From Candidatus Magasanikiibacteriota bacterium (GTDB lineage Bacteria; Patescibacteriota; Patescibacteriia; Magasanikbacterales; GWA2-37-8): a DNA stretch of 64,000 nt. The stretch is taken from contig JAGOQR010000001.1 of the NCBI GenBank assembly GCA_017991415.1, positions 212,490 through 276,489 on the forward strand, given 5' to 3'. Shown one piece after another: positions 66-9,865 of this stretch; the stretch's first letter is position 1; each line of letters starts with the position of its first letter. The notes beneath the pieces are model-generated. The model saw only the letters and a program-made list of their open reading frames with translations, was not told the origin of the DNA and did not search any database. The translations under genes and the position numbers were made by a program.

Positions 66-1886
66 CTATCTTGCTTGAGTTCGAAATGTTGCATTTCCTC
101 CACCAGTACGAGCGCCGCCGATATTACCAAGAATACTTGGTGCCTGCGTCGTTGTTTTAGAATTAGCAGCGCTTATCGTTCGCACTACCACCATATCGCC
201 TTCTACAAGACCGGACACAATTTCTGTTTGAGTATCATTAGACAAGCCAGCCTCTACTATCTGCTGACCAGGCGAAACAGCCGAAACAACACCCTGACTA
301 CTCTGCCCAGCACTTTGCTGAACTTCCAAAGACATTTGAGACTTATCAAACATCTCAACATAACTTATAGTCCCCTGACTTTTAACTGCACCACTCGCTA
401 CAAGCAGAACATCCTGCTTAAGTTGCGTAACGATAACTGCACTCACACTCATGCCCGACTTCACCCTATCGTCTTGTGTATCAAAAAGAATTTTTACATT
501 ATAAGTAACTACCCCCTGAGAAACAGTGCCAATACTATCTATCTCCGCTACCTGACCTGCAATACTTAAAGCATCAATTGCATCAAAGGTAAGTGTTACT
601 TTTTGACCAACAGCAACTTTGGAAACATCTACCTCGTTTAATGAAATCTCAGCAGTGTGTTGCTTGGTCGCCAGTGTAAGCAAAGCTCCTCCCGAAGAAA
701 TAGAGTCACCCTTTTTGAGCGTAATTTTTGCCACCACCCCAGCAAATGGTGCACGAATATAGTGGTCCGAAAGGGTCTGGTTCGCTGCAACAAGCGCATC
801 TTGCTTTTGTTGAATAGCTATCTTTTTGGCACGGATATCTAGCTCGTCTGCTGGATTCTTTATTTTAATAAGTGATAGTTCTTTTTCTTCAATACTTCTT
901 TGTGCGCTTATGATAGATTTTTTTGAACTTTCAATAGATTGCTCAATGGCAAGTAGGCTAGATAGATGATTATTTGTCGTACCTGTATAGGAATTAAGAC
1001 TAGAAAGATGAGTATTAGACAGCGAATTTGGTTTTAAATTATGTTCGGTAAGATTATCTTGGTAGAACTGAATTAAATTATTTGCACTTTTTACTGCCTC
1101 GGCAATTAATTTTGTTGTGTCATATGTTTGAGAAATTGCTGCTTCAATAGTTTCGACCGAAGAAAATCGGGTGATTATTTTATAATCTTGAAAATTTTTA
1201 TCATAGGCAATGCGAGCCTTTTCATATGCCGCACTCGCGTTATCTCTATACTCCAAAGCATGGTCATCATAAGCAGTCACTGCACCAGCGTAAAAATCAA
1301 TATTAGATTGGCTAGCATTAAACGAATTGGCAAATAAAATATCCTGAATACCCGTCATAACGGTAGGCAAAGCCAAAAAAGCATTCGAAACTGAATTAAA
1401 GCCATCTTCGTACGATTTTTTAATATCATCTTCTGCTTTTTGTTTTGATTCTTTTGCTTGTATCAAAGAATTTTCTGCTTGCAACACCGTGAGCCCGTCG
1501 GTTGGCTCAAGCACTTTATCCAATTCTAGCTTGGCTGTTTCGAGTGCTGTCTGCGCATCTCGCACAGATCGAACAGCATCTCTCGCATCAACCACTGCTA
1601 AAAGCGCCCCTGCTCTAACTTCCTGACCTTGTTTAACAGAGATAGATGTAAGCTCGCCACTCGCTTTTGCTTTTACATCAACCTGACTCACCGCCGAAAT
1701 TTGGCCACTACCAGAAATAGAAGTAATAAGCGTACCTTTGGTGACTGCAGCTAAAACATAACTAGTAGCTGATTTATCATTCTTAAAATGCTTATAGGCA
1801 AAATTTCCGCCTACACCGATAATACAAATAGCAATAAGCGTGTATGCCTTATGCATTTTTATGAAACCTACAATATTTTTTAACAT
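66..1886 (-). CDS. HlyD-family membrane-fusion / efflux periplasmic adaptor protein (MacA-like)
   Basis: 606 aa with an N-terminal TM segment, long coiled-coil alpha-hairpin region and C-terminal beta-barrel/lipoyl-like segments typical of HlyD/MFP adaptors. Gly-rich C-terminal tail. A partner pump gene is likely beyond the window start. Confidence 0.65.
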   Translation of the reverse strand: MLKNIVGFIKMHKAYTLIAICIIGVGGNFAYKHFKNDKSATSYVLAAVTKGTLITSISGSGQISAVSQVDVKAKASGELTSISVKQGQEVRAGALLAVVDARDAVRSVRDAQTALETAKLELDKVLEPTDGLTVLQAENSLIQAKESKQKAEDDIKKSYEDGFNSVSNAFLALPTVMTGIQDILFANSFNASQSNIDFYAGAVTAYDDHALEYRDNASAAYEKARIAYDKNFQDYKIITRFSSVETIEAAISQTYDTTKLIAEAVKSANNLIQFYQDNLTEHNLKPNSLSNTHLSSLNSYTGTTNNHLSSLLAIEQSIESSKKSIISAQRSIEEKELSLIKIKNPADELDIRAKKIAIQQKQDALVAANQTLSDHYIRAPFAGVVAKITLKKGDSISSGGALLTLATKQHTAEISLNEVDVSKVAVGQKVTLTFDAIDALSIAGQVAEIDSIGTVSQGVVTYNVKILFDTQDDRVKSGMSVSAVIVTQLKQDVLLVASGAVKSQGTISYVEMFDKSQMSLEVQQSAGQSSQGVVSAVSPGQQIVEAGLSNDTQTEIVSGLVEGDMVVVRTISAANSKTTTQAPSILGNIGGARTGGGNATFRTQAR

Positions 1887-1894
1887 ACAGAAAA

Positions 1895-2368
1895 TTATAA
1901 TTTAGATTTTGGCGGAAGCGGCGGCATTAAGCGGATAAGTCTCGCTTCAATTTGCCCTGTACTACTTGGCACTCCTAAAACCACAACTTGCTCATCAACA
2001 TGCACGTCGTTAACCGCTACAGTATCCTGCCATCTACGAATTAGAGTTTTATCACTAATTAAAATACTTTTTTCTACTCCGTCGTCACCTTTAATAATAA
2101 GGGTGCTCGTATCAATTTTAATTACCGAACCCGTAGCGCTATTTGCATCCATAAAACCACGCCCTCTAAAATCACGCGGTAATCGACGAGCACCTCCTTC
2201 AAAAAGGTTATGATAATTTTCTCCCCACTGATAATTAAACCCTGCCTTACGAAAACCAACCATCATGCCACACCAAAATATAAACAAACCAATAATTAGT
2301 GCGCCAAAAATAATAAGCCCTGTTTTTATTATTCTTGCCCCCATTATTTGTTTTGTTTCCTCTGACAT
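1895..2368 (-). CDS. hypothetical membrane-anchored protein (N-terminal TM, extracytoplasmic domain)
   Basis: 157 aa with a single N-terminal hydrophobic helix. Sits between HlyD and the anti-sigma/ECF pair. Confidence 0.35.
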   Translation of the reverse strand: MSEETKQIMGARIIKTGLIIFGALIIGLFIFWCGMMVGFRKAGFNYQWGENYHNLFEGGARRLPRDFRGRGFMDANSATGSVIKIDTSTLIIKGDDGVEKSILISDKTLIRRWQDTVAVNDVHVDEQVVVLGVPSSTGQIEARLIRLMPPLPPKSKL

Positions 2369-2390
2369 ATTTGATAAATTTAAAAAATTA

Positions 2391-2828
2391 TTAACGAACT
2401 CGTATACGTAAAATTGTCTTCATCTGAACATAGGTACGTATCGTCATCCATAAAAGCGCACTTGTTGCCCATATAAAAACAGCTATTAAGATCATCGAGA
2501 TGAGCGGCAAAGATTCCAGAAGTGACAAAACATACTCTCTCCAATATTCTACAATAACTGAAAAATCACTAAATAATAGGGATAGTAGCTGGGCCGCTTC
2601 TGACTGAGCAATACTAGGCCATTCCACTCGCAAAATAAGTACTGAACCTACACTTGAACAGATAGAAAAAAGGCTAAATATACCGAGCCGCACAAAAGCA
2701 TAAAAACGTCTTTTTTTAGCAATAACAGACATAATTTGAGCACTCAAAAAAGGCGGGGGTATAACTGCAGACCTCTCGGCAATTGCTTCTTGTATGGCTT
2801 TTTCAAAAAAAGTTGATATTTTATCCAT
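2391..2828 (-). CDS. putative membrane anti-sigma factor
   Basis: 145 aa, directly downstream of the ECF sigma gene. Short cytoplasmic N-terminus followed by TM helices. Call is positional. Confidence 0.35.
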   Translation of the reverse strand: MDKISTFFEKAIQEAIAERSAVIPPPFLSAQIMSVIAKKRRFYAFVRLGIFSLFSICSSVGSVLILRVEWPSIAQSEAAQLLSLLFSDFSVIVEYWREYVLSLLESLPLISMILIAVFIWATSALLWMTIRTYVQMKTILRIRVR

Positions 2829-2868
2829 ATAATTCTATTACGTATTTTATGTATAGTATGGTGCAATC

Positions 2869-3456
2869 TTATCCTAACAAATAGCCCTCTTCGCCGAGCA
2901 ACTTCCTAATCCGTATCAAAGCTCGACGATGCTTGCTTTTTACCGTATCTATTGACTCGGATAAAATTTCAGCTATTTCTGGCAGAGAAAACCCCTCTAG
3001 ATAATAAAGCTTCAAGACTACCGCATAAATTTTTGGCAACGAATCTACAATACGCAAAATAGCTTCTTTATTTTCTAAAGAAGCAACAACATCGAAAGGT
3101 AGTGGTTTTGGATCAACAAAAAAATTATCTGTATTTTCACCTTCTTCATCGTGCAGATTTTCTACAGATAAAAAAATTTTACGTTGCCGCAAATAATCAA
3201 TGGCGGTATTTTTTGCGATACGATACAGCCAAGGTTTAAACTTTTTAGTCTTATCGAATTTTTTTAAACTTTTCCAAACCTTAATAAAAGTTTCTTGACT
3301 TACATCCTCTGCTTCGGTGCCATACCCTACAAACTGAGCCACAAAATTATAAATCGCCGTCAAATATCTTTGCACCAAAATATCAAGTGATGATTCTTTT
3401 CCAGAAAGATATAAAGACACCAACTGCTCATCCGACTCTGCATACACATCAGACAT
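2869..3456 (-). CDS. RNA polymerase ECF-type sigma-70 factor (sigma-24 family)
   Basis: 195 aa. Region 2 (DVSQETFIKVWKSLKKF) and region 4 HTH (SLPEIAEILSESIDTVKSKHRRA) are recognisable. Confidence 0.85.
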   Translation of the reverse strand: MSDVYAESDEQLVSLYLSGKESSLDILVQRYLTAIYNFVAQFVGYGTEAEDVSQETFIKVWKSLKKFDKTKKFKPWLYRIAKNTAIDYLRQRKIFLSVENLHDEEGENTDNFFVDPKPLPFDVVASLENKEAILRIVDSLPKIYAVVLKLYYLEGFSLPEIAEILSESIDTVKSKHRRALIRIRKLLGEEGYLLG

Positions 3457-3495
3457 AGAGACAATTAAGTTAGTAATGTCTAAAATTGATATTAC

Positions 3496-4020
3496 TTAGG
3501 TGTTACCTAAATTCTTACTGAGAACAGTAAAATCTTTACCCCACCAATGTTTTTTAAGAAGACCTTCCTGGGTATACCCCAAGCTTTTATAAAATTCAGG
3601 GGCCACCTCGGTAGTAAGCGTTATCTTGTGGCAGCCAAGACTAGCTAGCTCTGATTCAACTTTTTTTAATAAATTAGAACCGATTTTCTGTTTACGATAA
3701 TCACTTAAAACAAAAAGCCAATGAACTATGCCAATACTGGCATTATGACTGGCAATAATAAGACCTACGCACTTCCCACCAACTTTTGCTACAAAAATAG
3801 TTCTTTGCTTTCGTAAACGAGCAAAGAATAAACGACGCAAAGAGTTTTTCTTGATAATTCTTTTTTTTACCTGATCATTATAAAAAGAAAAGTCCGTAGT
3901 AACTGCCTGATCAAACAAAAATGGCAAAGAAAAAATATCCGTAATAGATGGCTTGCAAATGATTTGTTCGAGGGTATCTGACATAACTATAAGCAAAAAT
4001 TTTCCCGACTGGTTAGTCAA
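3496..4020 (-). CDS. GNAT-family N-acetyltransferase
   Basis: 174 aa with an acetyl-CoA binding-like segment (RKQKIGSNLLKKVESELASLGCHKITL). Confidence 0.65.
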   Translation of the reverse strand: MTNQSGKFLLIVMSDTLEQIICKPSITDIFSLPFLFDQAVTTDFSFYNDQVKKRIIKKNSLRRLFFARLRKQRTIFVAKVGGKCVGLIIASHNASIGIVHWLFVLSDYRKQKIGSNLLKKVESELASLGCHKITLTTEVAPEFYKSLGYTQEGLLKKHWWGKDFTVLSKNLGNT

Positions 4021-4026
4021 GATAGA

Positions 4027-5544
4027 TTAAACAAAGCCTGGGAAAAAATCGGTTTTAACCTGTCTTTTTGGCACTCCCATTTTTTGCAACATGTCTGTAA
4101 ATGTTGTTACCATGGCATGTGTGCCTGATATGTAAAATGTTCTTTCTTTATAATCTGACACAATTTTACTAATCATATCACTATCAATAAAACAATTCTC
4201 CCCTGTCCAATCTGCGGGGCACGGCTGATCGGTAACGGTATATATAGTCTTAATACCAAGCTCTTTTTCTGCCTGATCAAAAATGTCTTTATAAGCTATA
4301 TCACTCGGCGCTCTATTGGAATAAATCATAACAATATCTCTTTTTTCTTTTTTATCAAGCAAATACTTGATCATACTTCTAAAAGGAGTAATACCAATAC
4401 CGCCTGCCAAAAAAACTAACTTTGTATTTTTATTTTGAGGCATAGTAAAATCTCCTGCCAGCTGAGAAGCAACGATGGTATCACCTGGATTTAAAAACAT
4501 CATGGACTGTTTAAAGCTGCTCGAATTTGGATAAAATTTGATTCCTGCCATAATACCGTCTTCGGTAGGAGAAGATGCGATAGTAAAATAACGACGCATA
4601 CCGCGGATATCCTGAGATTCATGACCTAAAGTCCATTCAAGATATTGTCCTGGAACAAATGATAGTTTTTTTTCTGATTTAAACCAAAAATCATATACAC
4701 TGGTCGCCGATAAAATTTTTTCTTTAAGCTGTAAAACCAATTTTAATTTAGGGCTCACTACATACGAAAATACATTGCCTACAACAAGTGCTAATTCTGG
4801 AGTAAAATAAAAAGATCCAATGTGAACAGCGGGGTTAAATAATAAACCTACAAGCACACCATACATAATTCGCAAATTTCTCGTTGGTGGCGTGGTTGCA
4901 GGTTCGGTAAGCATAGCAAAACCAAAAAACAAAACTGGGGAGTAGAGTAATATCTTCCATAATACTGTTAAGGCGGCTGTACCGTTTAGCGCTCCGATAA
5001 GCACGGTAGAAATAAGCGCAGCTGCAAAAAAACTAAGTACCAAATCAAATCTTCTAATTTTTCTTACTACGAGCAATCCTCCTAAGAAAACAAACGGAAC
5101 CAAATAAACACTGCTAACCCACCAATTAGCAGACCGTCCAAGCGTAAGCATTGTGAGCGTAACAGCAAAAGCAGCGGGATTAAACAGGTGTTTTTTATTT
5201 ATAGCAAAAATATATTTCGAAGCCATTGCCCACACAGCCACCCATGCCAAAAACGGCAAATATTCTGTGGATCGCATCGGAGCCACAATAAGAATTAAGA
5301 AAAATGCTGTAGCATAAACTGATTCGATATTTGTTGGTGCACCAAAAACTCGAGCAAAAATAGCATTGACTACCAGACAGATAGCCAAAATAAAGACCGC
5401 GGAAGTAACCATTTCGACAGGAGTGTATGCTAGTACATTAAAAAAACTCAATACAAAACCAGCAAACCAAAGGCCTGATACATAATATAGTATCAATCGG
5501 TACATGGTAATTTGATTAAGCCACTTATCAATAAAGCTAAACAT
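4027..5544 (-). CDS. polytopic membrane protein fused to a C-terminal FNR-like FAD/NAD(P)-binding oxidoreductase domain
   Basis: 505 aa. About 8-10 TM helices N-terminally. C-terminal RRYFTIAS (RxYS FAD motif) and GGIGITPF (NAD-binding Gly motif). Only two His in the TM region, so not a classic bis-heme ferric-reductase domain. Confidence 0.6.
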   Translation of the reverse strand: MFSFIDKWLNQITMYRLILYYVSGLWFAGFVLSFFNVLAYTPVEMVTSAVFILAICLVVNAIFARVFGAPTNIESVYATAFFLILIVAPMRSTEYLPFLAWVAVWAMASKYIFAINKKHLFNPAAFAVTLTMLTLGRSANWWVSSVYLVPFVFLGGLLVVRKIRRFDLVLSFFAAALISTVLIGALNGTAALTVLWKILLYSPVLFFGFAMLTEPATTPPTRNLRIMYGVLVGLLFNPAVHIGSFYFTPELALVVGNVFSYVVSPKLKLVLQLKEKILSATSVYDFWFKSEKKLSFVPGQYLEWTLGHESQDIRGMRRYFTIASSPTEDGIMAGIKFYPNSSSFKQSMMFLNPGDTIVASQLAGDFTMPQNKNTKLVFLAGGIGITPFRSMIKYLLDKKEKRDIVMIYSNRAPSDIAYKDIFDQAEKELGIKTIYTVTDQPCPADWTGENCFIDSDMISKIVSDYKERTFYISGTHAMVTTFTDMLQKMGVPKRQVKTDFFPGFV

Positions 5545-5587
5545 ACAATTTATTTAATGGACCGCGCGCAATCCACGAATTAATTTA

Positions 5588-6331
5588 TTAAATTACATAG
5601 TTATTAAAGCCACTAGTCATGGTAGCGATACCATCTCTGCCTATCATATACCCTTCTAAACCTGGATAGGTTTCGATAAAACTAATACCTTTTCTTCCCA
5701 TTGCAAAAGCGGCGGTAGCAAATCGATCGGCTTCATACACATTTGACCCAATTACTGTAATACTAACGACATCGAGCAAATTATTTTTTCTATCATGTGG
5801 GTTATAAATATGCTGGCCTCTTATATATGTCCCCGATGTGGCCATACCCATATTATTAAGATAGATCGTTTTTACCACTTCTTTTGCATTAAAGGGATTA
5901 CGAATTCCTACTCGCCAATTTTCATTTTGATTATTTCGGCCACTTGCTTCTATATCGCCCCCTGCTTCTATATAAAAATTTTCAAATTTTTTATTTTTTA
6001 AAATACACGCAGCCCCATAAATAGCCCACCCTTTTACCAAACCAGACGGATCGTAACTACCATCGACACGCTGTATATCAAAGTATCCATTGGTTATCTT
6101 TTTTGTTTCTTCTGACAATCTCAAAACTGTTTTCATGTCAACGCTATACTGCTCTTCTATGATTTCTTTTTTATTTATTCTACTTATTTCACTATCAGTC
6201 TTATAGGTACTAAAAGTATTATCGATATAAGTAAAATAATCAAAAACTTCTTTTATATCTCCGGGGCCAACAGCACCATCTAGAACTGTTACTGTAATTG
6301 GCATTCCCATAAGATCTCTCGTTTCAAACAT
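5588..6331 (-). CDS. apbE: ApbE-family FAD:protein FMN transferase (flavin transferase)
   Basis: 247 aa carrying ApbE signatures (MGMATSGTYIRGQHIYNPHD; AGGDIEA). Confidence 0.8.
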   Translation of the reverse strand: MFETRDLMGMPITVTVLDGAVGPGDIKEVFDYFTYIDNTFSTYKTDSEISRINKKEIIEEQYSVDMKTVLRLSEETKKITNGYFDIQRVDGSYDPSGLVKGWAIYGAACILKNKKFENFYIEAGGDIEASGRNNQNENWRVGIRNPFNAKEVVKTIYLNNMGMATSGTYIRGQHIYNPHDRKNNLLDVVSITVIGSNVYEADRFATAAFAMGRKGISFIETYPGLEGYMIGRDGIATMTSGFNNYVI

Positions 6332-6332
6332 G

Positions 6333-6851
6333 TTATAACTTAGCTTTAACTAAGGCCGAAGCCAAAGACTCTTTAAATGCCTTACTTGTTTCGGTGGCTC
6401 CAGAGACAATGTCTACCTCAGCGCTTTGAGCAGTAATAGCCTCTGTGCGCAGTATCGGTGTAGCCAAGCCACTAATCTCTATAGAAGTACTTCGATCTCT
6501 TGGGTAATCTAAAAACTGTACATCTACCAGCTGTCCGTTTTTTACAACCGCAACTACTTCTACTCGCCCATAATATGCGTCAACGCTCACACCATTATAT
6601 TCTCCATCTCGATATTTTGCGACCATGCCTGTCTCCGTACCTATGTCAGAATTTTGAATATCAGTACTTGGCGTTTGTACCGTAGCGTAGCTACCAAAAC
6701 CTAAGCGCTGATAAGCAACATAGAAAATAAAAGCTGCAATTGTAAAAACAGAAATTAATATTTTTTTCATACGACACGCTATAGGCAAATTAAATAATAT
6801 ACCCTCCAATTTTATCCGTACTATTCTAACATCTCCTCTCAAACTCTTCAA
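6333..6851 (-). CDS. FMN-binding domain protein (flavinylation substrate, membrane-anchored)
   Basis: 172 aa with an N-terminal TM anchor. C-terminal FMN_bind domain carries the flavinylation motif D-I-V-S-G-A-T. The stop abuts the apbE start. Confidence 0.7.
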   Translation of the reverse strand: MKSLRGDVRIVRIKLEGILFNLPIACRMKKILISVFTIAAFIFYVAYQRLGFGSYATVQTPSTDIQNSDIGTETGMVAKYRDGEYNGVSVDAYYGRVEVVAVVKNGQLVDVQFLDYPRDRSTSIEISGLATPILRTEAITAQSAEVDIVSGATETSKAFKESLASALVKAKL

Positions 6852-6959
6852 CCATACTCATAAACGGCTTGTGGATGGGGATAAGAGGCTTTGACAAAAG
6901 AAAGGGAGCCTACTACAATACGTAGTATATTTTATTCGAATTATTAAGGTTTTGCAAGC

Positions 6960-7526
6960 ATGTTTAAAAACAAATTCATCCTACTTAGCTTTATTGCTTT
7001 TGCATTTTTGGTTTTTGCACCACCTACCCAAGCTCACGAACTCAAAAGTAGCGGCTCTATTCGCGCACTCCTCCACATAAACCCGGATGACGACCCTGTC
7101 GCTGGACAGCCATCTGAAATATTGTTTTTAATTACCGATAAAGCAAAAAAATTTAATACCGCAGACTGCGCCTGCGAAGCCTCGGTTGTAGAAAACGGTC
7201 AAATTGTTTTTTCTTCTGCACTCTATAAAGCAAACAGCTCATACCGAGGAATTTTTGCTCCTGCCATCCCCTATACGTTTCCCCACAAAGGTATCTATAC
7301 CATAATCCTCACAGGAAAACCAAAAAACCCCGACAATTTTGAAAGCTTTTCTATATCATACGACGTTCGCATAGAAAAGGATGCAGCTACCCCAAAAGAA
7401 TCACCGTTTAAAAATATAGTCTACTACGCAGTCATACTCTGCATTTTGGCTGGAATGCTTTATTTTGTAAAACTATTTTTTACAAAAAATGATACACACT
7501 ACTCTATCGATAATTTAGAAAAATAA
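6960..7526 (+). CDS. CopC-like copper-binding protein (secreted, C-terminal TM anchor)
   Basis: 188 aa with a signal peptide ending ...PTQA|HELKSSGS. The mature N-terminal His followed by ELKSS resembles the CopC His-brace start (HPKLVSS). C-terminal hydrophobic helix. Confidence 0.4.
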   Translation: MFKNKFILLSFIAFAFLVFAPPTQAHELKSSGSIRALLHINPDDDPVAGQPSEILFLITDKAKKFNTADCACEASVVENGQIVFSSALYKANSSYRGIFAPAIPYTFPHKGIYTIILTGKPKNPDNFESFSISYDVRIEKDAATPKESPFKNIVYYAVILCILAGMLYFVKLFFTKNDTHYSIDNLEK

Positions 7527-7555
7527 TTTTTTATTAATTAATCTCATACGATACT

Positions 7556-8185
7556 ATGAATAAAAAAAAATTATTGCTTGGAGCTCTTGTCGCTTCTTTA
7601 TTTATTACTAACCAAGTTTTTGCTCATGCAACGGTCAAACCAGCAACCACAGGTGTCGGTAAATTTCAAAACTTCGTACTAGGCGCACCATCGGAAAAAC
7701 CCATTGCTACAGTTGGCATTCGCCTTGTTTTACCAGATGGCTTAAATCATGTAACGCCCAATGTAAAAGCTGGCTGGAAAATAACTACAAAAAAAGAAAC
7801 TATTAATAATGAACAAAAAATTACGGAGATCATCTGGACAGGCGGCACTATCCCCACAGAAATGCGCGACGAATTTCTCTTTAGCGCCCAAGTACCAAGC
7901 AAAGCCACAGCCCTTAACTGGAAGGTATACCAAACCTACGCAGACGGCAGTGTAGTTGCTTGGGATAAAGACCCAAGTCTATCACACTCAGATACTATGG
8001 AAGAGGAACAAGAAAACACAGGTCCTTATTCAAAAACAGAGGTGATCGATGACTTAATTGCCACGACAACCAACAATTCTCTAATCGAAACATCCGAAAA
8101 CAAAGAAGCCCGGATCGCAGTATGGCTCAGTGCCGCAGCAGTACTGATAGCCTTAGTTACATTTAAAAAGGCAGCTAAAAAATAA
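7556..8185 (+). CDS. YcnI-like (DUF1775) copper-binding protein
   Basis: 209 aa with a signal peptide ending ...QVFA|HATVKPA. YcnI domains start with a mature His followed by V/T-V-x-P. C-terminal TM anchor. Confidence 0.5.
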   Translation: MNKKKLLLGALVASLFITNQVFAHATVKPATTGVGKFQNFVLGAPSEKPIATVGIRLVLPDGLNHVTPNVKAGWKITTKKETINNEQKITEIIWTGGTIPTEMRDEFLFSAQVPSKATALNWKVYQTYADGSVVAWDKDPSLSHSDTMEEEQENTGPYSKTEVIDDLIATTTNNSLIETSENKEARIAVWLSAAAVLIALVTFKKAAKK

Positions 8186-8225: not shown

Positions 8226-9398
8226 TTATTTTTGTTGCACCGCAATTTTTTGACGAGAATAAACCCATGCTGCCAAACACGTTGTGATTGGCACAGCCAA
8301 CACAAGTGTAGCACTACCAACTAGAGTACGCACGATTTCTTCGGCAATAAAGGCGCTATTTATGGTCATTAAAAACGGCTGGGTTTTTTGACTACTATAC
8401 AACAATAGCAATGGCAAAGAAACTCCTACATAGGCCAAGACAAGCGTATTAACAAGAGAAGCGATATGTTCTCGCCCGACAGAAATACCACGTATATACA
8501 ATTCCTTAAACCCCAAGCTACTGTTTGCCAAAGAAATTTCTTCGACAGCAGCGGTTTGACTGGTCGTTACATCATCTAAAACACCTAAGACACCAATTAT
8601 AATTCCTCCGAGAAGAAGTCCGCGCAAATCAATATGTGCGCTGCTAAATTGCAAATAAAATACTTCCTCTGCACCACTTCCTGACAACTTGGCAATACTT
8701 ACAAAAATAATATTTATAACAATTGCGAGCCCAAGAGAAATAGCACTCGCTCCCACAGCTACACTTGTCCGTTTACTAAAGCCGTGTGAAATATACAATG
8801 ATGTAAATAAAATTGCCAAAGATCCGATAATGCAAACTAAAAATGGATTACTGCCATGTATAATACGAGGAATAATAAAATAAAAAACTACCAACACACT
8901 AAAAATTAAGCCGATGATAGAGGTGAGTCCACGTCTACGGCCAAAATAAATGGCTAGGCCAAAAAAAACAACGGTGATAAAAGCCAAATTATGCACCCTA
9001 TATTTATCAGTGATATAGTAGATTTCTCGGCCACCTGGCAAATCTGGAGTTTTTGCAACAAACACCTTTTCTCCCACTGCTACCATCTGACTTTCTGCAA
9101 CCACAAAACTACCTCCATGATCTATGGTAATATGTTTACCTTTTTCATTTCCATTTAAAATTTCTAACTCTAATTTTTGATATTTCAAAACTTGCCCTTC
9201 CTCAACTTCTTTTTCACCTGTTTCAATAATAGCAACTACCTTTGCACGATAATAACTATCAGATAAATCAACTGTGGTTGGGGTGTTTATTATACTCTCC
9301 TCTGGCAATGCCTGAGCGGCAACCATAGAAGCCGTACCCAAAACAAATACTGCAGCGATTGCAATAAAAAAAGTTAGATAAATAGCGTGTTTAGACAT
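8226..9398 (-). CDS. YibE/F-family polytopic membrane protein
   Basis: 390 aa. N-terminal extracytoplasmic segment followed by about 8 TM helices rich in G/I/L/V, as in YibE/F-like proteins. Confidence 0.45.
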   Translation of the reverse strand: MSKHAIYLTFFIAIAAVFVLGTASMVAAQALPEESIINTPTTVDLSDSYYRAKVVAIIETGEKEVEEGQVLKYQKLELEILNGNEKGKHITIDHGGSFVVAESQMVAVGEKVFVAKTPDLPGGREIYYITDKYRVHNLAFITVVFFGLAIYFGRRRGLTSIIGLIFSVLVVFYFIIPRIIHGSNPFLVCIIGSLAILFTSLYISHGFSKRTSVAVGASAISLGLAIVINIIFVSIAKLSGSGAEEVFYLQFSSAHIDLRGLLLGGIIIGVLGVLDDVTTSQTAAVEEISLANSSLGFKELYIRGISVGREHIASLVNTLVLAYVGVSLPLLLLYSSQKTQPFLMTINSAFIAEEIVRTLVGSATLVLAVPITTCLAAWVYSRQKIAVQQK

Positions 9399-9433: not shown

Positions 9434-9865
9434 TTATTTTTTTGCACAAACACTACAAACGCCAAAAAACTCCAATGAGTGTTCGGTGAGCTTGGCAAAA
9501 CCAACTGAAGATAAAAAACTGTTGTTAATAATTTGCACAGCACACTTAGAAATATCTTTTATTTTACCACAACTACTACAAATAATATGGTGATGATGAT
9601 TTTTTTCAACCAGCTCGTAGTACGCTTGGCGGTCCTTTAAACGTATTTGTTTTAAAACCCCCAACTCTGCCAGAGCTTCCACATTTCTATATAACGTAAC
9701 CTTGTCTGCTTTTTTGTCTTTGAGCAACACAAAGATATCACTCACACTCAGTGGTTTTTTTGCATGCTTTAAAATATCCATCAACTTAAGGCGTGCGCCA
9801 GTGGATTTAAGCTTGCCTTTTTTAAGAATAGCAGCTGACTGCTCGTAATGCTCTTCACATTTCAT
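9434..9865 (-). CDS. zur: Fur-family metalloregulator, probably Zur
   Basis: 143 aa with a winged-helix N-terminus. His-rich HHHHIICSSCGK and a C-terminal CxxC pair. Divergent from znuABC. Confidence 0.7.
   Translation of the reverse strand: MKCEEHYEQSAAILKKGKLKSTGARLKLMDILKHAKKPLSVSDIFVLLKDKKADKVTLYRNVEALAELGVLKQIRLKDRQAYYELVEKNHHHHIICSSCGKIKDISKCAVQIINNSFLSSVGFAKLTEHSLEFFGVCSVCAKK

Follow-up and report, generated by a model that had tools for sequence, protein, structure and literature searches.

Flavinylation gene clusters that encode a fusion of a PF03116 domain with a PF00175 domain are referred to as 'NQR/RNF-like systems' (Méheust et al. 2021, eLife, PMC8238504), and the class, known from bioinformatic definitions (Méheust 2021; Huang 2024), is experimentally uncharacterised. 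Such systems were reported in 127 genomes, chiefly of Actinobacteria and of the candidate phyla radiation (PMC8238504), and it has been proposed that electrons flow through them one way, from NAD(P)H to the outside of the cell (PMC8238504, PMC11334425). The complex of Ktedonobacter racemifer was modelled with AlphaFold-multimer (Huang et al. 2024, mSystems, PMC11334425); the authors remarked that the membrane subunit is devoid of the flavinylated Thr of NqrB/RnfD, and their model brings the covalent flavin of the NqrC/RnfG-like subunit close to what seems to be a site for a non-covalent flavin. These papers name no acceptor beyond a hint at VIT1, and they mention neither copper nor DUF1775 (PMC8238504, PMC11334425). 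The system analysed here lies in a stretch of 64,000 nucleotides (nt) from a Candidatus Magasanikiibacteriota bacterium (GenBank assembly GCA_017991415.1, contig JAGOQR010000001.1, positions 212,490 to 276,489 of the forward strand), hereafter called the window. Three genes of the NQR/RNF-like type (the module) are found there head-to-head with two genes encoding exported proteins of copper type, i.e., a protein of 188 amino acids (aa) and YcnI (the cassette). The flavin module itself is already known; what is new is its lineage-specific pairing with the cassette, to which it could supply electrons.

Eukaryotic reductive copper uptake is carried out by the reductase Fre1 together with Ctr1, and CcoG is a bacterial cupric reductase. 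In Bacillus subtilis YcnI, Cu(II) is bound by a mono-histidine brace whose ligands are the N-terminal His, Glu50 and Trp137 (PMC8424229). No reductase is known to be associated with the YcnI/YcnJ pathway of this bacterium; the need for a localised cupric reductase has been discussed in a 2026 study, where CcoG is also mentioned (PMC13344008).

The flavin module and the NQR/RNF-like class

The features of the flavin operon are the following.

4027-5544, minus strand: RnfD-like/FNR fusion, 505 aa; NAD_binding_1 (PF00175), E 1.4e-17, plus a sub-cut-off match to NQR2_RnfD_RnfE (PF03116)
4381-4404, minus strand: GGIGITPF, fusion residue 381 (motif search)
4573-4596, minus strand: RRYFTIAS, fusion residue 317 (motif search)
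4885-4908, minus strand: TEPATTPP, conserved motif of the fusion membrane domain
5588-6331, minus strand: ApbE flavin transferase, 247 aa; Pfam PF02424, E 4e-39
6333-6770, minus strand: NqrC/RnfG-like FMN_bind subunit, 145 aa, with an N-terminal signal anchor (MKK plus a transmembrane (TM) segment); PF04205, E 1.9e-7; start taken from orthologues
6393-6413, minus strand: DIVSGAT, ApbE target motif with Thr126, in the FMN_bind subunit (motif search)

The five open reading frames (ORFs) outlined by an earlier reading of the sequence alone (the sequence-only reading) proved to be real and were confirmed at their coordinates, motifs included, by an ORF and motif check of the window. A single boundary had to be moved: since the FMN_bind orthologues all begin with MKK followed by a hydrophobic segment, this gene starts at the ATG at 6770 (MKKILIS...) and not at the TTG at 6851, and the gap between the divergent genes is therefore 189 nt rather than 108.

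Judging from its domains, the minus-strand trio (4027-6770) can be assigned to the NQR/RNF-like class. A PF03116-homologous membrane domain at the N-terminus and a PF00175 domain at the C-terminus belong to the same protein, and FMN_bind and ApbE are located immediately upstream of the fusion in one operon, in the order FMN_bind-ApbE-fusion (the class definition asks for a distance within five genes). The TM domain is without the flavinylated Thr, and the FMN_bind subunit carries the ApbE motif, variants of which are kept in its orthologues; no [ST]GA[ST] flavinylation site was found in the TM domain of the window fusion or in that of any of 80 homologues. The composition of the trio had previously been read as suited to carrying electrons from NAD(P)H to the outside, in agreement with the path proposed for the published class.

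The match of the N-terminal half of the fusion to NQR2_RnfD_RnfE is weak (E 1.2e-5, 25.2 bits versus the Pfam cut-off of 27.7), and the comparison with NCBIfam gave sub-threshold likenesses only, to NqrF, to flavohaemoprotein reductase modules and to RnfD. The AlphaFold model (15 homologues, pLDDT 78.9) shows 10 membrane helices at residues 14-263, followed by a two-domain module of FNR type, and a fold search assigned the membrane domain to the NqrB/RnfD fold. The TM domain on its own gave no matches in a sequence search of the PDB, the fold search alone being informative, and a PDB profile search with the soluble part agrees with the FNR-type assignment. In Pfam, the 505-aa fusion has no match to PF01794 (Ferric_reduct), with its paired haem-ligating His. 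Within the limits of sequence and fold, this answers the question that the sequence-only reading had left open about the cofactor of the TM domain, which is a flavin-type NqrB/RnfD domain and not a haem ferric-reductase domain; the C-terminal half is of the NqrF/FNR-like FAD/NAD(P)H type and cytoplasmic.

Homologues of the fusion are full-length and 55-95% identical to it throughout the top 120 matches listed, among which the closest named relative is a metagenome-assembled genome of Magasanikbacteria (75% identity). At least 416 fusion loci confirmed by tblastn exist among the GTDB species representatives, well above the 127 genomes published, and they span Patescibacteria, Chloroflexota, Alphaproteobacteria, Spirochaetota and Actinobacteria.

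The window module shares with the published NQR/RNF-like systems the two-subunit architecture plus ApbE, the TM domain without the flavinylation Thr and the proposed direction of electrons; it differs from them in being head-to-head with a copper-type cassette. The six-subunit operon of the canonical Na+-NQR/RNF (NqrD/E = RnfA/E; NqrA or RnfB/C) was not found, the operon consisting of three genes only, with a GNAT gene, an extracytoplasmic function (ECF) sigma factor gene and the divergent cassette as neighbours. Homologous NqrB/RnfD, NqrC/RnfG and NqrF-type modules and an ApbE-dependent covalent FMN are common to both; NqrA/D/E or RnfA/B/C/E, the Fe-S carriers, the quinone or ferredoxin module and the covalent FMN site of the B/D-like subunit are missing from the trio, which retains one of the two transmembrane paths, probably run in reverse. 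Tethered FMN_bind proteins flavinylated by ApbE, passing electrons to extracellular metal acceptors, are also a trait of the flavin-based extracellular electron transfer of Listeria (Ndh2-EetAB-PplA-FmnB) and of the FMN_bind genes in P19-FTR1 clusters; the conduit of the window is different, with neither Ndh2 nor a quinone step, and without P19/FTR1.

On the basis of NQR structures and of the published AlphaFold-multimer model (PMC11334425), NAD(P)H would reduce the FAD in the cytoplasmic FNR domain of the fusion, electrons would cross the membrane via the NqrB/RnfD-fold domain, presumably through a non-covalent flavin, and they would then reach the covalent FMN, attached by ApbE, on Thr126 of the tethered FMN_bind subunit at the outer face.

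The copper-type cassette and its Ferric_reduct partner

On the other side of the intergenic region, two genes are transcribed divergently.

6960-7526, plus strand: 188-aa exported protein with a signal peptide (cleaved between TQA and His), a beta-sandwich and a C-terminal helix tether
7556-8185, plus strand: YcnI (DUF1775), 209 aa, with a signal peptide (cleaved between VFA and His) and a C-terminal membrane helix; PF07987, E 8.6e-22

The sequence-only reading had regarded them as a CopC-like and a YcnI-like protein, both starting with His once matured. The latter point is corroborated by the cleavage sites, which precede His24 in YcnI (site inferred from the AXA rule) and His26 in the 188-aa protein, whose Ala-His junction is invariant in the alignment. 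YcnI can be considered, on its sequence, a genuine DUF1775 protein of Cu(II)-binding type: the PF07987 score is 78.5 bits versus a cut-off of 25, the ligand columns align with those of the B. subtilis YcnI structure (PDB 7me6/7mek; E 3e-15), and the ligands are kept, with His24 corresponding to the mature His1, Glu47 (in PSEK) to Glu50, and Trp136 to Trp137.

The assignment to CopC, on the other hand, did not hold. The 188-aa protein has no matches at all in Pfam and NCBIfam, CopC (PF04234) and P19 (PF10634) included, and its profile gave no matches in a PDB sequence search. In the model (pLDDT 75.9), eight strands form a beta-sandwich, and a membrane helix stands at the C-terminus; the closest whole-domain folds are copper proteins, but the fold alone is weak evidence, because many generic Ig-like domains score alike. 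The protein may be called CopC-like at the level of the predicted fold only, and by sequence it is not a member of the CopC family. His26 (mature residue 1), His39, Pro42, Asp44, Asp60 and Cys70-x-Cys72 are invariant in 31 diverse members. According to the hairpin register of the model, His26 and His39 would be neighbours on adjacent strands beside an N-P-D-D-D-P loop, with the CxC pair at the opposite end; this layout recalls that of some CopC proteins, which possess separate Cu(II) and Cu(I) sites.

The exhaustive profile search revealed 1,616 representative clusters of the 188-aa family with a threshold of E<=1e-3, and still 1,195 with one of E<=1e-10, overturning the picture of a tiny lineage-specific family (22 clusters) given by a word-indexed search. 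All of them are annotated as hypothetical, without a Pfam domain; where a name is given, it is that of Woesebacteria, Saccharimonadales or Doudnabacteria. Three candidate relationships were rejected after hhalign comparisons: with YcnI, the similarity is limited to 34 columns of the signal peptide/N-terminus, and with the YtkA-like C-terminal region of the reductase partners described below, and with FMN_bind, the probabilities are 7% and 14%, respectively, i.e., there is no real homology in any of these cases.

A metagenome scan with the family alignment retrieved 80 loci (the loci compared in this work are designated by L numbers), whose analysis revealed a recurrent arrangement. Directly upstream of the 188-aa homologue, on the same strand and often overlapping it, there is a gene for a membrane protein bearing a Ferric_reduct (PF01794) domain in 38 out of 49 loci with sufficient room; YcnI follows directly downstream, again on the same strand, in 34 out of 57 loci with room, and the full set Ferric_reduct - 188-aa - YcnI occurs in 18/44. 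These partners exist in two types. Type A (~390 aa; 11 loci) is a DsbD_2 domain (E 1.2e-47) fused to Ferric_reduct (E 1.1e-8), with an HCxxMC motif. Most partners belong to type B (512-546 aa), without DsbD_2, in which Ferric_reduct (35.8 bits versus a cut-off of 28) is followed by two extracytoplasmic repeats showing a weak YtkA-like match (E 6e-4) and the motifs H-x-[IV]-x-[IV]-[DN]...H-[IV]-H-P. Both are undescribed architectures of bacterial Ferric_reduct-domain proteins (examples are L130:794-2329, L158:6781-7950 and L174:4435-5991). On the 1.6-Mb chromosome of L174, the called genes and Pfam give the order Ferric_reduct - 188-aa homologue - small ORF - DUF1775 - PKD protein. The YtkA-like domains and one cassette in an oxidase operon point to copper as the metal of the cassette: in L161:2689-7842, the 188-aa homologue comes directly after the genes for the haem-copper oxidase subunits II, I and III and for haem O synthase, which suggests that there it plays a role in the copper loading of the oxidase. 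No co-mention of DUF1775 and 'ferric reductase' was found in the papers listed for DUF1775 in the library searched, nor was any description of the pattern transmembrane reductase plus His-brace/CxC protein plus YcnI found in the literature searched.

No Ferric_reduct partner was detected in the 64-kb window or in L001-L093. When the metagenome loci that extend 6 kb or more to each side are considered, a module gene is present at 2 out of 4 cassettes without the reductase and at none of the 17 bearing it (Fisher p = 0.029); the two positive loci are L126 and L142, in which FMN_bind lies ~7.5 kb away, at the locus edge. If the four contexts of the window lineage found via the 188-aa protein are added, the figures become 6/8 and 0/17, these contexts being phylogenetically related. 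An RnfD_FNR match of a hidden Markov model (HMM) in L137 was not counted as a module, corresponding to a 235-aa ORF which is probably FNR-only.

Since the cassette is normally preceded by a Ferric_reduct protein and this protein is missing here, it is reasonable to propose the neighbouring flavin module as the electron supplier, with a cupric-reductase role. The likely client of the module in the window lineage would be the divergent pair, i.e., the 188-aa protein (mature His1, His14 and Asp; CxC) and YcnI, and the module would stand in for the haem b Ferric_reduct protein. Cu(II) held by YcnI and/or by the His site would be reduced to Cu(I) and handed to the CxC site, and from there Cu(I) would go to uptake or to the loading of cuproproteins. 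The identity of the acceptor, the metal and any physical contact between module and cassette are putative. The cupric-reductase role already suggested by the sequence-only reading thus finds a rationale in the missing partner, as an inferred pairing of one lineage; that the module supplies electrons to the cassette, most likely for Cu(II) reduction, is quite possible, at somewhat less than an even chance.

With the YcnI-YcnJ system of B. subtilis (CopC-CopD-YtkA; PMC8424229, PMC12154828, PMC13344008), the locus shares the His/Glu/Trp Cu(II) site and the C-terminal tether of YcnI, the pairing of YcnI with a second exported, His-first beta-sandwich protein and, in the wider cassette, the YtkA-like domains. 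It differs in that CopC, CopD and YcnK were not detected among the neighbours scanned, in that the partner of YcnI belongs to an unrelated CxC family without a Pfam or NCBIfam model, and in that a transmembrane reductase is a conserved neighbour, of haem type elsewhere and of flavin type in the window lineage. The logic of Fre1/Ctr1 and CcoG is the same, a transmembrane reductase making Cu(I) from Cu(II) at the membrane before the transfer, and the wider cassette shares the Ferric_reduct (PF01794) domain family with Fre/NOX. The cassette system, found in bacteria, differs in having extracytoplasmic carriers of its own, of His-brace and CxC type, and, in the window, a flavin-only conduit in place of the haem domain; to CcoG, it has no homology.

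Association of module and cassette, and alternative explanations

The intergenic region contains signals for both operons.

6823-6851, minus strand: promoter-like site of the FMN_bind-ApbE-fusion operon, TTGAAG-17-TAGAAT with extended TG (consensus scan)
6891-6919, plus strand: promoter of the 188-aa/YcnI operon, TTGACA-17-TACAAT, 11/12 (consensus scan)
6911-6927: palindrome TACTAC-N5-GTAGTA with one mismatch, overlapping the -10 box of the 188-aa gene (alignment)

In an alignment of six related intergenic regions, the minus-strand promoter region is conserved. An invariant TGGGGATAA precedes the -35 box of the 188-aa gene. The palindrome, probably the operator of a repressor, is perfectly conserved and occurs once per related locus (L081-L090), always just upstream of the 188-aa gene, with which it stays also in L087, where the flavin operon is separated. 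Its identification with the 'cop box' of CopY was rejected, the consensus of the latter being TACA-NN-TGTA (PMC7253601) versus a 3-nt spacer in the window. The half-site spacing equals that of GACA-N3-TGTC, the site of the copper-responsive BlaI/CopY-family regulator PetR; this is a lead only, as the window contains no BlaI/CopY-family regulator and the palindrome does not extend beyond the window lineage. The PetR-regulated slr0601/slr0602, described as a two-TM protein and a coiled-coil protein, were discarded as a YcnI/188-aa pair.

The neighbourhood of the module was analysed in a set of 80 distant loci (L001-L080) with flanks of up to 10 kb, by means of greedy non-overlapping gene calls. 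According to family HMMs, FMN_bind is present in 69 of them and ApbE in 67, and the order FMN_bind-ApbE-fusion is conserved. Recurrent neighbours are MacB/FtsX-type permeases (21), histidine kinases (20), OmpR regulators (16) and HlyD-type adaptors (11); ECF sigma factors also recur, and VIT1 is found in 4/80. In the close family of the window 188-aa gene, this gene flanks the module in all contexts recovered: it adjoins the flavin operon divergently in the window, L081-84, L085, L088, L090 and L091, and L088 and L089 retain the head-to-head arrangement in spite of a different far flank. The synteny expected by the sequence-only reading therefore exists within the window lineage and fails in the distant loci, and the co-occurrence of module and cassette is confined to one Patescibacterial lineage.

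Several observations weigh against the proposal that the module serves the cassette, and most of them are what one would expect if the two were mere neighbours, the module being a general NAD(P)H-oxidising electron exporter or one with another acceptor, the cassette a separate unit, and their synteny inherited in one lineage; this explanation is a possibility that has to be taken seriously. In none of the 80 distant loci do family HMMs find the 188-aa protein or YcnI near the module, even at E<=0.01, so that copper cannot be the general function of a module commonly found without the cassette; conversely, any module gene lies within 8 kb of the cassette in at most 3 out of 80 metagenome loci. 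Even in the lineage, two genes in L087 and one in L089 are inserted between the 188-aa gene and the flavin operon, YcnI accompanies the 188-aa gene in 4 of ~9 contexts (window, L085, L088 and L089), and L092, whose fusion is slightly closer to that of the window, has the module and no cassette. Since the lineage contexts are mutually related, the adjacency may represent one or two evolutionary events only, and the syntenic flanks shared by close relatives (GNAT, gatCA, znuABC, fur) indicate a general collinearity. The two operons have their own promoters, and the palindrome travels with the 188-aa gene only, implying a separate regulation. Cassettes without the reductase and with no module nearby are also known (L140, L161, L170 and L112; in L112 and L170, the cassette stands behind an Ndh2-like flavoprotein), neither CopD nor another known copper importer adjoins the cassette, and only 64 kb of the genome are in view, so that a gene for a Ferric_reduct-domain protein could lie elsewhere. 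A mere neighbourhood, in turn, does not explain why the head-to-head arrangement is kept in L088 and L089 after replacement of the far flank, nor why the cassette is without its usual reductase partner precisely where it adjoins the module, as reflected in the complementarity test (p = 0.029).

Three further explanations accept an electron transfer to the cell surface or to the cassette, and assign it to a different acceptor. Electrons might go to the CxC pair of the 188-aa protein, keeping its thiols reduced for Cu(I), by analogy with CcdA/DsbD-TlpA-Sco. The invariance of CxC in 31 diverse members, the DsbD_2-Ferric_reduct fusion upstream in 11 loci, the DsbA/DsbB genes after the cassette in L175 and the presence of the family in the haem-copper oxidase operon of L161 are in line with this; it is nonetheless unlikely, given that most partners (type B) are without DsbD_2 and that, in the model, Cys residues at i and i+2 of a strand would be poorly placed for a disulfide, and we know of no citable precedent for a transfer from an extracellular flavin to a disulfide. 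A reductive assimilation of iron, with Fe(III) reduced outside and imported by ZIP, YibE/F or other permeases, and with the beta-sandwich proteins acting like P19/FtrA, would fit the published links between flavinylation and iron (the P19-FTR1 clusters, and VIT1 in six NQR/RNF-like clusters), the VIT1 genes near the module in 4/80 loci, the Fur-family and ZIP genes beside the cassette in L125 and L175, and the very name of the partner domain, which refers to ferric reductases. This option is quite improbable: YcnI is an experimentally established Cu(II) protein (PMC8424229) whose ligands are kept in the window, the YtkA-like domains and the oxidase operon point to copper, and the 188-aa protein has no sequence match to P19 (PF10634). 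Histidine-brace proteins require external reductants. The 188-aa protein might therefore be a histidine-brace redox enzyme similar to lytic polysaccharide monooxygenases, activating O2 or H2O2 at the cell surface or dumping electrons onto O2, as its invariant N-terminal His and a second His, placed by the model on adjacent strands, and its obligate-looking association with a transmembrane electron supplier could suggest; we consider this very improbable, since the protein is not homologous to those monooxygenases or to oxygenase families, and its domain is small, with a likewise conserved CxC and with YcnI as partner, as is typical of metal trafficking.

A different difficulty, which affects the electron path itself, concerns the localisation of ApbE. 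From the positive-inside rule, the signal anchor of FMN_bind is predicted to have its N-terminus inside and its C-terminus outside, with the domain outside; in the orthologues, the positive-inside count gives N>C in 34 cases, equality in 15 and N<C in 3. The Chloroflexota orthologues have long N-terminal tails rich in K/R, one of Spirochaetota a cleavable-type signal, and that of Agreia a lipobox. ApbE, instead, opens in the window directly at its core (MFETRDLMGMPITV), with no room for an upstream start, and an inspection of the N-termini disclosed no signal peptide, lipobox or hydrophobic segment in any of 59 orthologues from operons of this class (loci L001-L080, with L076:9102-10001); the ApbE of a cultured Agreia isolate is likewise without signal or anchor. 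A cytoplasmic ApbE with an exported FMN_bind substrate is a predicted topological paradox, which speaks against the favoured electron path, and the maturation and topology of FMN_bind are insecure because of it. The FMN_bind domain is predicted outside, as the sequence-only reading expected for the SGAT site, and its ApbE inside, so that this expectation is not cleanly borne out. In the Listeria/P19-FTR1 systems, ApbE (FmnB) is an exported lipoprotein, whereas cytosolic ApbEs are known for cytosolic substrates only; a signal-less ApbE is not discussed in the two papers on the NQR/RNF-like class (PMC8238504, PMC11334425). Three possibilities can be envisaged: flavinylation may occur in the cytoplasm, prior to the translocation of the exported protein, another ApbE may be at work, or the accepted topology may be wrong. 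In the last case, both the published model and the sequence-only hypothesis would be undercut.

Genomic surroundings and significance

Beyond the cassette, two more genes follow.

8226-9398, minus strand: YibE_F
9434-9865, minus strand: Fur-family regulator, next to an ABC metal-uptake operon

The membrane protein YibE_F recurs beside the 188-aa/YcnI cassette in the window, L085, L087, L090, L091, L117, L126, L142, L174 and L175, and genes for a Fur-family regulator, ZIP or ZnuABC often accompany it. In L175, the order on a single strand is Fur-Zip-YibE_F-296aa-(188-aa homologue)-YcnI. YibE_F may be a transport partner of the cassette or the sign of a metal-regulated island. Extra ORFs without Pfam matches are found between or after the 188-aa gene and YcnI (258-262 aa, 142 aa, and a 116-aa His/Cys-rich family; L085:5084-5872, L091:7585-8361 and L174:6537-6965), and a secreted protein with a PKD domain is encoded after YcnI in 16 loci. 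In the cyanobacterial-looking L170:7345-10157, annotated by eye, YcnI precedes the 188-aa homologue, beside a BlaI/PetR-like repressor, a BlaR1/PetP-like protease and cytochrome c6.

Downstream of the fusion, the region 66-3984 harbors genes for a GNAT protein and for four others, namely an ECF sigma factor, a putative anti-sigma factor, a membrane protein of 157 aa and an adaptor of HlyD/YknX type with 606 aa; these four, without GNAT, are conserved as a block in L088:731-4094 and L089:1-2672. In L092:13938-15518, ~6 kb downstream of the module, DUF305, a copper repressor of CsoR type (PF02583) and a fusion of the form HMA-DsbD_2-cupredoxin are encoded. The fusion in L093:1822-3204 is shortened at the N-terminus (460 aa), with neither FMN_bind nor ApbE upstream, and looks like a decaying module.

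The ApbE paradox, if real, bears on the maturation and export of covalent flavoproteins in general, and the 188-aa protein defines a large family without a Pfam or NCBIfam model. On a wider scale, Patescibacteria and some other bacteria might possess an undescribed three-part pathway of reductive copper handling, formed by a transmembrane electron supplier, the His-brace/CxC family and YcnI; we advance this generalisation with considerable doubt. Just as doubtfully, the supplier might be a Ferric_reduct haem protein with DsbD_2 or YtkA-like domains in most lineages, and a flavin-only complex here. For the reduction of Cu(II) by bacteria that acquire copper or assemble cuproenzymes, the pattern gives clonable candidates. 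If the three-part pathway is real, with the module as its supplier here, it would provide the missing cupric reductase of the YcnI pathway together with the first physiological acceptor of NQR/RNF-like complexes and, for bacteria of the candidate phyla radiation, with their minimal redox metabolism, it would suggest that they devote resources specifically to metal redox chemistry outside the cytoplasm.

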